IMG/VR virus record: IMGVR_UViG_2711768065_000005
Source: a virus
Taxonomy: Duplodnaviria; Heunggongvirae; Uroviricota; Caudoviricetes
Reading direction: 5' to 3' (one strand)
DNA length: 38,499 nt
Under the pieces are notes generated by a model. That model was not told the origin of the DNA, made no database searches, and was given only the letters and a program-made list of their open reading frames with translations. Positions 1 through 38,499 of the stretch are shown piece after piece (position 1 is the first letter of the stretch; each line of letters begins with the position of its first letter). Made by a program: the position numbers and the translations under genes.

Positions 1-3000
1 ATACCAGTATGACTGTTGGTTATTACTGTTGAAATTCTCATGCTTACCACCGCGGAATAACACTGGCGGTATCATGACCTGCCGGTCAAATTTCTGATCA
101 TCACTGATTCTTACCGTGATGGTGCCACTGGCATAACTGTTCGTGCGGGGGAAAGACTTGCTGACCGTTTTGACAATATCGCCTTCAATCTGATTGGCTG
201 ACAGTTTTCCCTTAATCTGACAGTTTTCATTAATCGTGACATTGTTGAGCGTCCCTGAATTTGCATTCACATTACCGCTGATATCCGCATTTTTAGCGGT
301 CAGCTTTCCGTCTGGTGTCAGGGAAAATGCCGGCGGATTTCCACCGCTGGTAATGGTGGGAGCCGTCAGGCGTTTCAGGAACACGTCGTTCATGAATATC
401 TGATCGCCCTGACCAACAAACATCGGTTTTGTGTTGCCATTCGCAGGATTAACCATCGCAATCCTGTCCGCCGCCAGCAGCACCTGACTCTGCATGCCGT
501 CAGGGGTATTCTCAATACCGGCACCAATACCCGCGATATAAAGGCGTCCGTCCTGCATCTGCTGCAGCTTCACAGCCCACATGCTGTTCAGGTTATTATT
601 TGTATCAACCTGAACCTTCTGTATCTGCTGAATTGCAGCACTCTGGTCTTCCAGTTTCTTATTGACGGTCTGCGTGATTTCATTGCTGACATCCGTAATG
701 GACGTCCTGATTTCAGCCAGGTCAGGCGCAAGCTGACCGTTATCAATCTGCGTCCACAGCTCCTGAGCCAGATGGGTTTTCCCTATCTCGCCTTTGAAAA
801 AATCCAGATAACCGGATGCATCATCACTCGGCTGACCAACAGCCTCCACGAATGCCGATTTGCCAACGGTGTTCACACTGCGGATATAAAAGTAATAATC
901 ATGGCCCGGTTTGATATTGATACTGGCGGCTATCCAGTACAGCGCCGTGCCAAGATAGCGTGCTGTGGTTTCAACCTGCCTGATATCCGCAATCCGCTTT
1001 TCCGAGAACCAGAACTCAAACTGTACCGTCGGATCATAAACCGCAAGATGCGGCGTGGCGGTTATCTGAAAATAGCCCGGCGTCAGCTCAATCCGCGACG
1101 GCGCTGCCGGTGCGGCAATCCGGAACGATACCGACGCCGGATCGCCCTGCTGCCCCCACGCATTTACTGCCCGGACTGTCAGCCTGTAGTTCCCCAGCGC
1201 CAGTTGTGTGAAGCGGTAAGTGGTTTCCGTCGTCCGGGCCGTGCTGACCAGCCGCTCACTGCCGTCATCCGCTGTTACGGTCAGACGGAGCAGGAAGCTC
1301 ACGCCCTTCACCACCTTCGGTGTGTCCCATCGCGCCAGCACCTGATATTCCCCGCTGTCTGCAGTGACTTCGGCGGTCAGGTGCTGCACTGCTGGCGGCG
1401 TGACACCATTCACCGTGCCGCTCTGGTCACCGTCAAAGTGCGCCCCGTTATCCACGATGGCTTCTTTTTCCGGTACATGCTGCACGGCGGTGATGGCATA
1501 CGTGCCGTCGTCGTTCTCACGGATACTCACGCAGCGGAACAGGCGCTGGCGCAGCGTCGGCAGCTTCAGCCCCCACACGCTGTATTCAGCAACGCCGTCA
1601 GGAACACGGCTCACTTTCACCTTCACGCCGTCGGTGACGGACTGAACCTCCACGCTGACCGGATTGCCACTCCCGTCAACCAGGCTTATCAGCGTGGTGC
1701 CGGAAGATGGCAGCGTGATTTCACGGTCGAGCGTCAGCGTCCGGGTCTGGCTGTTTACCGCCAGCACGCGCCCGCCGGTGCGGATACCGGCATAGTCATC
1801 ATCGCAGATTTCAATGACATCGCCCGGTACATGGCGAAGCCCTTCGGCACCCACGCTGAAGTCCACGGTCTGCGTTTCCAGCAGTTCTGTTTTAATCAGC
1901 CACAGCCCGGCGCGGTGTGCCTGCCCCCGGCTGGTACAGCCAAAAGCATCCATCTTCGTGACGTTACGACCGTAACGGGCAATGGCCTGCGTGTCCTCCA
2001 CAAGCTCTGTCGCCGTCTCCCAGCCGTTATTCGGGTCAATCCAGTTCACCTCAACGGCATTATGGCGGTCCTTCAGGGCGCTGAAGCTGTAGCGGAACGG
2101 CGCACCATCATCCGGCATCACCACATTACTGCGGTTATAGGTCCACACCTTATCCGACGGTCGGTCCTGCACGAACGTCAGCGTCTGCCCGTTCCATACC
2201 GGCATACAGCGCATCGCAGAGCAGAAATCACTGAGCACATCCCACGCCTTGCGCTGTGTGGTCAGGTACGCATTACAGGTGATGCGCGGCTCCGTGCCGC
2301 CAAAACCGTCCGGCACCGACTGATCGCAATGCTGGCCGATGACATACAGCGCCCATTTGTCCACATCCGCCGCACCAAGACGTTTCCCCATGCCGTAGCG
2401 CGGATGGGTCAGCATATCCCACAGACACCAGGCCATGTTGTTGCTGTATGCTGGCTTAAACGTTCCGTCCCAGATACCGCTGTATTGCCGCGTCTGCGGG
2501 TTATAGTTCGACGGCACCTGCAGAATGCGCCCGCGAAGATGATAATTACGGCTCACCTGCTGGCTGCCGAACTGCTCCGAATCCACCTGCACGCCGACCA
2601 GTGCCGTGTTCGGGTAGCACTGTTTCACATCGATGATTTCGGTGTATGACGACCAGAGCGTTTTGTTCTGCAGCTGGTCTGTGGTGCTGTCCGGCGTCAT
2701 TCTGCGCATCCGGATATTAAACGGGCGCGGCGGCAGGTTATCCACCACCACCGAGGCCAGATACTGCGAGGTGGTTTTGCCCTTAATGGTGATGTCTTTT
2801 TCCGTCACCCAGCCACCGTTACGTTGTATCTGAACCAGCAGGCGAACTTCCGACGGATTCCGGTCCCCCTTTGAGGTGGTTTCCACCAGTGCCTGCATAC
2901 CGAAGGTAAAGCGCAGACGGTCGATGTTTGCCGACGTGATGGTCCGGGTAATCGGCGTGTCGTACTTCACTTCCGTACCCAGCACCGTCTCGGAGCCGGA

Positions 3001-3249
3001 GGATTCAAATCCCTCCGGCGGTGTCTGCTCCTGCTCACCGGCCCGGAACACCACCGTGACGCCGGATATATTGGTATTCCCCTCACTGTCCAGCACCGGC
3101 GTACTGTTCAGCAGCACGCTTTTTAATCCATCCACCGGACCTTCAACCGGCCCTTCGCTGATGGCATCGATCACACTCAGCAGCTGCGTGGACTTCAGGT
3201 TGTCCTTCGCTTCGCGCGGGGTATGCCCCTTACTGCTGCCTTTACCCAT
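1..3249 (-). CDS. J: Tail tip/host specificity protein J (3' end truncated by window edge)
   Basis: Reverse complement from 3249 reads ATG GGT AAA GGC AGC AGT AAG GGG CAT ACC = [10 protein letters not shown], the lambda J N-terminus; GGAG Shine-Dalgarno 5 nt upstream; reading frame stays open to position 1. Plus-strand ORF 772..2649 is its antisense shadow. Confidence 0.9.
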
Positions 3250-3309
3250 TCGTCATGCTCCATAAACGATAAAACCGCCCGGAGGCGGTTTCACATAAAA
3301 CATTTTGCA

Positions 3310-36932: not shown

Positions 36933-37184
36933 ATGAGCGAAGTAATCATGATTGTCTCTCCCGGCAAATGGGTATCCGAAGAGCAGTTAATTGCGCTGAA
37001 AGGAATAAAAAAAGGTACGTTAAAAAAGGCCCGGGAAAAATCGTTTATGGAAGGAAGGGAATATAAGCATGTCGCTCATGACGGTATGCCATGGGATAAC
37101 AGCCCATGCTTTTACAACCTGGAAGAAATTGATCACTGGATTGAGCGCCAGGCATCAGCGAGACCAAGACGTCATCTTACTTGA
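36933..37184 (+). CDS. Putative excisionase / small DNA-binding protein
   Basis: 83-aa ORF immediately upstream of the integrase; call is positional. Confidence 0.45.
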   Translation: MSEVIMIVSPGKWVSEEQLIALKGIKKGTLKKAREKSFMEGREYKHVAHDGMPWDNSPCFYNLEEIDHWIERQASARPRRHLT

Positions 37185-37218
37185 CTAAAAGCCACACTAA
37201 CTAATGAGAGAAGTTGAA

Positions 37219-38499
37219 ATGAAATATCCGACAGGCGTGGAAAACCATGGAGGGAAATTACGTATCTGGTTTGTTTATAAAGGCGTAAGAGTCAGGGAAA
37301 ATCTGGGGGTTCCTGACACAGCAAAAAACAGGCGCGTTGCAGGTGAACTACGCGCCTCTGTTTGTTACGCAATAAAAACTGGTGTTTTCGACTATGCAAA
37401 ACAGTTTCCCTCCTCACGCAATCTGGAAAAATTTGGTGAGGCCCGACAAGATTTAACCATAAAAGAACTGGCTGAAAAATTTCTGGCACTGAAAGAAACT
37501 GAAGTCGCAAAAACATCACTCAACACATACCGTGCCGTCATCAAAAATATCCTGAGCATAATCGGTGAAAAAAATCTTGCCTCATCGATTAATAAAGAAA
37601 AATTACTGGAGGTTCGTAAAGAGCTACTGACTGGATACCAGATCCCCAAAAGTAACTATATTGTTACACAACCAGGGAGATCGGCTGTAACTGTAAATAA
37701 TTACATGACAAATCTTAACGCCGTGTTTCAGTTTGGTGTTGATAACGGTTACTTGGCAGATAACCCGTTTAAGGGGATCTCGCCATTAAAGGAATCAAGA
37801 ACCATTCCGGATCCTCTTTCGCGGGAGGAATTCATCCGTCTTATCGATGCGTGCAGAAATCAGCAAGCCAAAAATTTATGGTGTGTTTCTGTTTATACTG
37901 GCGTTCGCCCTGGTGAGCTGTGTGCACTTGGATGGGAGGACATAGATCTGAAAAATGGAACAATGATGATCAGGAGAAATTTAGCAAAAGACCGTTTCAC
38001 GGTACCAAAAACACAGGCGGGAACCAATCGGGTCATTCATCTTATTAAGCCAGCAATCGACGCTCTCCGGAGTCAGATGACATTAACGAGACTGAGCAAA
38101 GAGCATATCATTGATGTTCACCTCAGAGAGTATGGCAGAACAGAAAAACAAAAATGCACCTTTGTTTTTCAACCTGAAGTGTCAGCGAGAGTAAAAAATT
38201 ATGGTGACCATTTTACCGTTGACTCAATAAGGCAGATGTGGGACGCAGCGATAAAACGTGCCGGACTCCGCCATCGAAAATCATATCAGTCGAGACATAC
38301 TTATGCCTGCTGGTCGCTGACAGCTGGTGCTAACCCGGCATTTATAGCAAACCAGATGGGCCATGCAGATGCGCAAATGGTATTTCAGGTATACGGAAAA
38401 TGGATGTCTGAAAACAATAATGCACAGGTAGCTTTGTTAAATACACAGTTAAGCGAGTTTGCCCCAACCATGCCCCATAACGAAGCAATGAAAAATTAA
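37219..38499 (+). CDS. int: Tyrosine recombinase (phage integrase)
   Basis: 426 aa from MKYPTGVENHGGKLRIWFVYKG...; C-terminal catalytic-domain features (TGVRPGEL, HxxR-like SRHTYACW, VFQVYGKW with candidate Tyr); stop codon TAA is the last three bases of the window. Confidence 0.85.
   Translation: MKYPTGVENHGGKLRIWFVYKGVRVRENLGVPDTAKNRRVAGELRASVCYAIKTGVFDYAKQFPSSRNLEKFGEARQDLTIKELAEKFLALKETEVAKTSLNTYRAVIKNILSIIGEKNLASSINKEKLLEVRKELLTGYQIPKSNYIVTQPGRSAVTVNNYMTNLNAVFQFGVDNGYLADNPFKGISPLKESRTIPDPLSREEFIRLIDACRNQQAKNLWCVSVYTGVRPGELCALGWEDIDLKNGTMMIRRNLAKDRFTVPKTQAGTNRVIHLIKPAIDALRSQMTLTRLSKEHIIDVHLREYGRTEKQKCTFVFQPEVSARVKNYGDHFTVDSIRQMWDAAIKRAGLRHRKSYQSRHTYACWSLTAGANPAFIANQMGHADAQMVFQVYGKWMSENNNAQVALLNTQLSEFAPTMPHNEAMKN

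Follow-up and report, generated by a model that had tools for sequence, protein, structure and literature searches.

A Qin-site, Tritos-like prophage cut by a contig end and its relation to the cryptic Qin prophage of Escherichia coli K-12

Extent, integration site and active relatives

Does the cryptic Qin prophage of Escherichia coli K-12 have an intact counterpart, and would such an element be the phage from which K-12 Qin decayed? The question is raised by a stretch of 38,499 nucleotides (nt) of Caudoviricetes DNA (IMG/VR record IMGVR_UViG_2711768065_000005; the whole stretch is called the window here), which a preliminary description had read as an apparently intact and possibly inducible phage of the K-12 Qin lineage. 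We found that the window is very probably the right-hand part of a lambda-like temperate siphovirus at the Qin site (ydfJ/rspB) and that it belongs to the group of mEp460_ev081, Tritos and HannyBb. Prophages of this kind, including active Qin relatives, were documented before; the one oddity of the window is an 87-bp gap in the tail tip gene I.

The layout obtained from the six-frame list of open reading frames (ORFs), Rfam matches and base composition is that of a lambdoid prophage, in which a structural block on the minus strand (1-18142, 54.5% GC) is followed by the late, cargo and early region (44.6% GC). The integrase of 431 amino acids (aa) and the 823-aa exonuclease, which had been described as uninterrupted, are both open. 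The window has no ambiguous bases, and a tRNA scan of it returned 0 genes; a promoter and terminator scan of 26400-34400 gave counts at the level of shuffled sequence and was not informative.

The attachment (att) site lies outside the window and was located through a sister contig (CXXV01000008.1 of GCA_001268345.1, from a neighbouring accession series), which was found by a look-up of the exonuclease and is 100% identical to window 24389-38499. In this contig, the attR core GAAATCCATAA stands 38 nt past the integrase stop and is followed by rspB, which places the integration between ydfJ and rspB/ynfP at this core. The exact 431-aa integrase is present in 391 collection blocks, with rspB as its neighbour in 10 of the 10 places shown. 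The preliminary description had proposed to inspect the flanks for att repeats and tail-fibre genes; the right-hand att core, followed by rspB, was recovered, and attL, lom and the side fibre gene lie beyond the contig.

Records of isolated phages cover the two halves of the window (1-19000 and 19001-38499) at approximately 96-98% identity: HannyBb to 88% and 85%, Tritos to 92% and 69%, and mEp460_ev081 to 89% and 70%. All HannyBb proteins compared were matched collinearly and over their full length, except for the gap in gene I, 11 residues missing from the portal protein, and J, which is cut by the contig end; a re-check of these matches for hidden stops found a single one, at portal codon 492. 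In addition, the attP of HannyBb (24060-24140; CTCTTGAAATCCATAATTCACAGG) equals the left half of K-12 Qin attR joined to the right half of attL at the 11-bp core, which at the sequence level is direct evidence of precise excision of this type of Qin-site prophage. The left end of K-12 Qin (ynfT, ydfK, pinQ) matches the DNA next to attP in HannyBb and Tritos at 98.5% identity. For Tritos, spontaneous induction was reported, plaques were purified on MG1655 hsdR-, and transmission electron microscopy showed a siphovirus (PMC9928086); mEp460_ev081 is described as a functional temperate phage that carries dicB, dicF, dicAC and rem (PMC10448788). Excision, virions and plaques of this type are on record only for relatives of the window, as plaques for Tritos and as a functional phage for mEp460_ev081. 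Since active phages nearly identical to the window have been isolated and HannyBb carries such an attP, Qin can rightly be said to have intact, active relatives, a point that was already documented.

Qin-site prophages of this type are also common in bacterial chromosomes. In a set of 5,426 complete E. coli genomes, 1,779 have 80% or more of window 1-20000 in one place, and 425 have 80% or more of 20001-38499. Annotated full-length examples between ydfJ and rspB include those of IBS28, CFSAN061770 and KKa014. IBS28 and window 3481-22387 are separated by 4 substitutions and one 1-bp indel, CFSAN061770 and window 22369-38499 by 10 substitutions and 0 indels; the switch between the two types is seamless, falls at 22316-22388 in the holin/ydfR (DUF1327) region and is, as read from these alignments, a homologous mosaic joint. 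In a published survey, 189 strains had prophages at the Qin site, with sizes from 11 to 97 kb (PMC6379469). With full-length prophages at this site common, functional ones isolated and published, and their link to dicB, DicF, DicA and Rem noted in the literature, the window has little significance beyond its annotation, for which a Qin-site, mEp460_ev081/Tritos-like prophage cut by a contig end would be a fitting label.

Relation to the Qin prophage of K-12

The window was compared with MG1655 1628000-1656000 and its annotation, where Qin occupies NC_000913.3 1632277-1652745. Collinear K-12 blocks were found at 19058-21655 (91.8%), 22152-27235 (98.9%), 31532-31923, 32629-32957, 33475-35155 (98.2%) and 37340-38499 (99.1%). 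At the protein level, the window keeps 27 of the 41 annotated features of K-12 Qin in unchanged order, contiguous with packaging, head and tail genes, in agreement with the preliminary description. The integration site and att core are shared, and the order from gnsB to int is kept at mostly 92-99% DNA identity. Amino acid identity is 90-100% for gnsB, ynfN, ynfR, ynfQ, cspI, rzpQ/rzoQ, rrrQ, essQ, ynfU, cspB, cspF, ynfS, ydfT (quuQ), ydfU, rem, hokD, ydfA, dicB, ydfD, the 5′ 255 codons of ydfE, and intQ. It reaches 100% for cspI, cspB, cspF, essQ, ynfU, hokD, ydfA, dicB and the first 255 ydfE codons, and is 98.8% for ydfT, 98.0% for ydfU, 97.6% for rem, 96.8% for ydfD and 97.2% for intQ. One assignment had to be corrected: the ORF at 22701-22922 is ynfU, and cspF lies at 23802-24014.

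The earlier statement that K-12 has largely lost its morphogenesis genes and has an interrupted ydfE was borne out. The boundary of a collinear block at 35155 coincides exactly with the IS2E remnant of K-12, where the K-12 exonuclease gene also stops. K-12 lacks the 2,184 bp of window 35156-37339, which hold the 3′ part of the exonuclease gene, the excisionase gene xis and the initial 136 nt of int. Also missing from K-12 are the head/tail module and window 27236-31531, with a cargo gene, the DUF977 gene, the O-like initiator gene and most of the CII-like gene. K-12 ydfX (96 aa) is an N-terminal remnant (93 residues, 97.8%) of the 173-aa CII-like/YdaT gene of the window.

If K-12 Qin had decayed from exactly the phage that the window shows, one would expect such clean deletions (ydfX is the start of the CII-like gene; an IS2E remnant stands in place of the exonuclease 3′ part, xis and the int 5′ end), and also the common site, an integrase 97% identical to the intQ remnant, and the high identity of 22152-27235 (98.9%) and of the dicF-dicB-ydfD-ydfE 5′ region (98.2%). 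We nevertheless regard this descent as very unlikely. The genes at the place of dicC and dicA had been named as such, and they do stand there, but they are divergent alleles (70% aa identity to DicC and 57% to DicA) with no DNA-level alignment over 31924-32628, so that the two prophages do not have the same immunity. Their packaging modules differ as well: the K-12 genes nohA-ynfO-ydfO are of the lambda Nu1 type, are 92.8% identical to a prophage of ET76 at the lambda attB site and have no counterpart in the window, in which a tblastn search with nohA gave 0 matches. K-12 further has relBE, ydfV, flxA and ydfC, all absent from the window. The window itself combines sequence of three lineages and changes from one to the next at about 3480 and at approximately 22316-22388. 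Taken together, because the immunity alleles, the cargo and the type of small terminase (DUF1441 versus Nu1) differ, the alignments make the window a mosaic cousin of K-12 Qin and not its undecayed form. The description of an inducible phage of the K-12 lineage holds in that the window is a Qin-site relative whose close relatives are active phages, and goes too far, given the immunity and nohA differences, in pointing to the lineage that K-12 decayed from.

The gap in gene I and the origin of J

In gene I, an in-frame gap of 87 bp between 3480 and 3481 leaves a protein of 186 instead of 215 aa (29 codons lost). The full-length allele matches lambda gpI (PDB 8iyk_I) with E = 5e-107. In the lambda virion, gpI is a trimer; its plug domain (159-175), together with the hydrophobic helices H1 and H2, closes the tail tip, and these parts change their arrangement when LamB is bound (PMC11101478). 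The conserved segment GASM-LGGVAQMLAPK-TP, which spans helix H2 and the start of the plug, is absent from gene I of the window. Among 1,107 homologues, LGGVAQMLAPK is kept in all full-length proteins of E. coli, Salmonella and Citrobacter, and only rare singletons are without it. If real, the gap is probably inactivating.

The junction at 3480/3481 was found in 0 of the 5,426 complete E. coli genomes, and the exact 186-aa protein occurs on one contig in the whole protein collection, namely CXYQ01000008.1 (132,299 bp; GCA_001268485.1), the draft contig of the window, whose end is 2 nt from window position 1. The join is blunt and without microhomology. To its left, 1-3480 shows 3 mismatches (99.9%) to J and the 3′ part of I in a prophage of ET76, which lies at the lambda attB site and has lambda-type head genes; to its right, 3481-7000 shows 1 mismatch to IBS28. 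The left end of the sister contig, reached through a rare U allele and its 7-kb flank, is 100% identical to 3481-17541 (14,061 nt) and to 3227-3480 (254 nt), and it has the 87 bp between these two parts. Over the 28 kb aligned there are 0 mismatches between the sister and the window, and the sister encodes a 215-aa gene I protein identical to that of IBS28. The sister contig ends 68 nt into J, and its break lies 320 nt past the allele-switch point. Since the sister shows the same switch through a full-length gene I, the change from IBS28-type to ET76-type sequence is real in this clone, and the alignment presents it as a homologous crossover of the ordinary kind inside GATAACGGCAAACAGAA.

The gap is more likely to stem from an assembly error at the boundary of a repeat than from a mutation. 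Several observations weigh against this reading and against a functional phage. The gap corresponds to residues 139-167 of lambda gpI (LFSLGASMVLGGVAQMLAPKARTPRIQTT) and removes the LGGVAQMLAPK motif, conserved in lambda and in the Salmonella and Citrobacter homologues; a length of 87 is not k-1 for an odd k-mer, and no simple assembler mechanism is proven; some 7-8 kb of the left arm (the end of J, lom, the side fibre, the assembly protein, any pin/ydfK cargo and attL) lie beyond the contig; and the 491-aa portal allele, found in 119 of the 1,577 genomes with this portal, occurs in 0 of the 15 isolated-phage records that have this portal, where about 1 would be expected by chance. In this portal allele, a stop at codon 492 (13811-13813, GAA to TAA) removes the acidic last 11 residues of the HannyBb, Tritos and mEp460 proteins; it was considered as a defect and dropped, as 0 of 15 against about 1 expected is not informative.

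A fresh mutation is less probable than an assembly error, but it is kept in consideration because the gap is in frame and no k-mer is shared across it. In its full form, which we consider doubtful, this explanation holds that the deletion is real and very recent, and that the prophage is tail-defective with its other genes intact, a first step toward a cryptic Qin-like element. The loss of exactly 29 codons, the blunt join without a k-mer for a de Bruijn assembler, the lack of ambiguous bases and the conservation of the lost segment, which forms helix H2 and the plug start in the lambda virion protein, would all suit such an event. The junction is, however, private to one draft assembly, while a sister without a mismatch in 28 kb has the 87 bp; moreover, the gap abuts the exact start of the ET76-type 3′ I and J sequence, and the break of the sister 320 nt beyond suggests a repeat boundary. 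Should the gap be real, which is unlikely, the two sister isolates would show the first inactivating step in the decay of a Qin-type phage, with a working and a lost tail-tip gene side by side. If a gpI without H2 and the plug start still worked, which is less likely, part of the lambda ejection machinery would be dispensable.

The identity break at 3480 also bears on J. That J comes from an unrelated prophage was rejected, since the sister has the same switch and a natural join of this kind exists in strain EC6. A weaker form, in which most of the J sequence (1-3226) belongs to a second prophage of the same genome and was attached by the assembler, is rather improbable, although a lambda-attB-site prophage whose head is of another type matches 1-3480 at 99.9% in its J and 3′ I sequence, the sister contig stops 68 nt into J, and the 87-bp gap sits at the start of the ET76-type segment. 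It is opposed by the sister, which independently has the ET76-type 3′ I and the start of J by way of a full-length gene I, and by EC6, which naturally joins the same J, I and K allele to this head and tail type; if the two copies were identical, there would be no functional difference. In EC6 (8767-14296 of the locus), a junction inside gene L connects J, I and K of the ET76 type to a tail and head of the ClpP-capsid type at a third chromosomal site, beside yodB/zinT. As far as its sequence tells, EC6 illustrates how freely tail-tip modules are shuffled, and such shuffling is normal.

With an assembly error as the preferred explanation of the gap, the phage is probably functional if that explanation holds. 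Intactness cannot be claimed from the window: because the contig ends inside J, the left arm lies outside, and gene I is without 29 conserved residues. An apparently intact element with full packaging, head and tail modules had been described; the small and large terminases, the portal, the ClpP-capsid fusion, Z, U, V, G, T, H, M, L, K, I and J are indeed present, but J is cut, gene I and the portal are short and the left arm is unseen. The accompanying statement that no structural gene is truncated does not stand, as J runs off at position 1, gene I has 186 instead of 215 aa and the portal is 11 residues shorter than in isolated phages. The apparent lesion in gene I needs a check against the reads before the prophage is called either intact or defective.

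Gene content, predicted life cycle and comparison with known phages

The features of the window are collected in Table 1. In the tail module, the exact H protein is listed in 784 blocks of the protein collection. A search of the G/T boundary (8929-8960, minus strand) for the slippery site GGGAAAG of the lambda type gave no match, and RefSeq annotates G and T separately in relatives.

Table 1. Features of the 38,499-nt window
Feature	Position	Strand	Basis or remark
J (tail tip/host specificity), first 1,083 codons, open throughout	1-3249	-	translation; about 78 C-terminal codons missing
I (tail tip protein), 186 aa	3310-3870	-	PF06805 (Lambda_tail_I) recorded for product
K	3768-4511	-	Pfam Prok-JAB/NLPC_P60; protein identical to IBS28
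L	4517-5215	-	Pfam Phage_tail_L; protein identical to IBS28
M	5225-5554	-	Pfam Phage_min_tail; protein identical to IBS28
H tape measure, 1,024 aa	5554-8628	-	
T tail chaperone	8600-8929	-	
G tail chaperone	8938-9324	-	
V major tail protein	9385-10128	-	Pfam; full-length HannyBb match
U	10140-10541	-	Pfam; full-length HannyBb match
Z	10538-11116	-	Pfam; full-length HannyBb match
Gifsy-2-family head-tail protein	11128-11403	-	Pfam; full-length HannyBb match
Cement/DUF2190 protein	11396-11719	-	Pfam; full-length HannyBb match
ClpP-like prohead protease/major capsid fusion, 675 aa	11806-13833	-	Pfam CLP_protease + Phage_capsid_4; RefSeq name
Portal, 491 aa	13811-15286	-	isolated phages: 502 aa
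Head-tail adaptor, 70-72 aa	15286-15504	-	
Large terminase, 699 aa	15495-17594	-	
Small terminase, DUF1441 type/phrog_141	17603-18142	-	
Inferred cos region	18320-18333		Tritos and cdtI linear records begin/end at 18326/18327
YbcW-like protein	18693-18899	-	
gnsB	19195-19368	-	
ynfN	19541-19696	-	
ynfR, ynfQ	within 18693-20412	-	
cspI with cspA-type leader	20042-20254	-	leader 19996-20412, Rfam
rzpQ/rzoQ	20618-21115	-	
Lysozyme rrrQ	21112-21645	-	
98-aa ORF, phrog_25324	21773-22069	+	opposite strand to lysis cassette
DUF1327 protein	22094-22312	-	58% to K-12 ydfR
Holin essQ	22317-22532	-	
ynfU	22752-22922	+	
cspB with leader	23286-23501	-	cspA-type leader 23270-23662, Rfam
cspF	23802-24014	+	
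ynfS	within 22752-24158	+	
Antiterminator Q (ydfT/quuQ)	24436-25188	-	
ydfU, DUF968/HNH	25202-26251	-	
92-aa ORF	within 24436-27390	-	
Antirepressor rem	26598-26849	-	function from PMC10448788
hokD	27066-27221	-	
sok RNA	27216-27390	-	Rfam
DUF7380/DUF4209 cargo gene, 595 aa	27896-29683	+	candidate defence gene, PADLOC PDC-S39
DUF977/Ren-like	29902-30303	-	
O-like initiator, DnaD-like similarity	30344-31309	-	
CII-like/YdaT-family protein, 173 aa	31290-31811	-	
Cro/DicC-like protein	31795-32022	-	70% to DicC
Short helix-turn-helix (HTH) repressor	32049/32100-32507	+	57% to DicA; no peptidase domain
ydfA	32700-32855	+	
205-aa ORF	32815-33432	+	
DicF RNA	33693-33744	+	Rfam
dicB	33919-34107	+	
ydfD	34104-34295	+	
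YdfE exonuclease, full-length, 823 aa	34389-36860	+	Pfam YdfE_N + YdfE_C
Excisionase	36933-37184	+	
Tyrosine integrase, 431 aa	37204-38499	+	

The predicted repressor has HTH domains only and no peptidase S24 domain, unlike an SOS-inducible repressor of the CI type. No LexA box (CTGT-N8-ACAG) was found on either strand of the window, and an SOS-controlled antirepressor was dropped as a candidate on this ground. In K-12, DicA is a short Gifsy-type repressor that is released by the antirepressor Rem, and dicBp is reported not to respond to mitomycin C (PMC10448788). Since the repressor is HTH-only, no LexA box is present, K-12 DicA and Rem behave in this way and the window has kept rem (97.6% identical to K-12 rem), induction is more likely to be Rem-dependent than RecA-dependent, and the mitomycin C induction proposed in the preliminary description may yield a false negative. 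Mitomycin C should not be relied on as the sole inducer.

Lysogeny would be held by the short DicA-type repressor and, by analogy with K-12, released through Rem instead of RecA cleavage. The tyrosine integrase and the excisionase would recombine at GAAATCCATAA, and the DUF1441/GpA terminase would cut near 18326, as the ends of the Tritos and cdtI records suggest a cos site near 18326/18327. The DNA would be packed into an HK97-like head built of the ClpP-capsid fusion protein and delivered by a lambda-type tail with J as the receptor binder. The cargo (cspI, cspB and cspF, gnsB, hokD/sok, DicF, dicB, ydfD and a candidate defence gene of the HEPN type) is predicted to act on the host.

Among these cargo genes, cspI and cspB are both preceded by full-length cspA-type thermoregulator leaders (110 and 159 bits, Rfam). 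The cargo expressed by Tritos includes cspI, cspB, ynfN and hokD, with cspI and cspB strongly expressed in the lysogen (PMC9928086). In ynfN, a 1-bp difference from IBS28 at 19747 makes the N-terminal extension shorter (63 versus 76 codons), and the 51-aa K-12 core is intact. The protein of the DUF7380/DUF4209 cargo gene matches PADLOC PDC-S39 with E = 8e-103 and has the motif RNQLAH (HEPN-type) inside DUF4209, a domain placed in the HEPN RNase superfamily (Anantharaman et al. 2013). This gene is absent from K-12, HannyBb and Tritos; PADLOC returned 0 matches for four other small ORFs. The slot between hokD and DUF977 (approximately 27400-29900) varies in its cargo among Qin-site prophages with an identical integrase, which carry a protein with a SIR2_2 domain, a 484-aa ORF or insertion sequence (IS) elements, and K-12 has relBE/flxA there; by this comparison, it looks like a variable hotspot for defence genes or morons.

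Among known systems, lambda gpI (PDB 8iyk and 8xcg) is nearly identical to the N-terminal 100 and C-terminal 56 residues of gene I in the window, which differs by having no equivalent of residues 139-167, namely helix H2 together with the beginning of the plug (159-175). K-12 Qin shares the site, the att core and the gene order, and it carries, beyond relBE, ydfV, flxA and ydfC, the genes ynfO, ydfO and the Nu1-type nohA that the window does not have. The phages mEp460/mEp460_ev081, cdtI and Ayreon, which have ClpP-capsid fusion heads, share the structural module at 95-97% identity over approximately 90% of 1-19000, whereas their early regions and cargo differ from those of the window; mEp460_ev081 also covers 70% of the second half. 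From its name only, cdtI presumably carries cytolethal distending toxin genes.

Tritos (OV696610.1), which is prophage 3 of the adherent-invasive E. coli strain LF82, resembles the window at 92-99% in the head, tail and lysis genes, the cargo (cspI, cspB, gnsB, ynfN, hokD, DicF, dicB, ydfD), the exonuclease, xis and int, and differs in having a CI/Cro/Rha immunity and replication region and other cargo between hokD and ydfU. HannyBb (PP925841.1) covers 753-17594 and 85% of 19001-38499 at approximately 97-98% and has the same types of replication genes (O-like initiator and DUF977/Ren-like). Identity to the window is 100% for its repressor, CII-like protein and small terminase and 99% for its integrase, xis and exonuclease. 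In contrast, HannyBb has no DUF4209 cargo gene, its gene I encodes 215 aa and its portal 502 aa, and its J, in which the C-terminal part is different, has 86.5% identity to that of the window.

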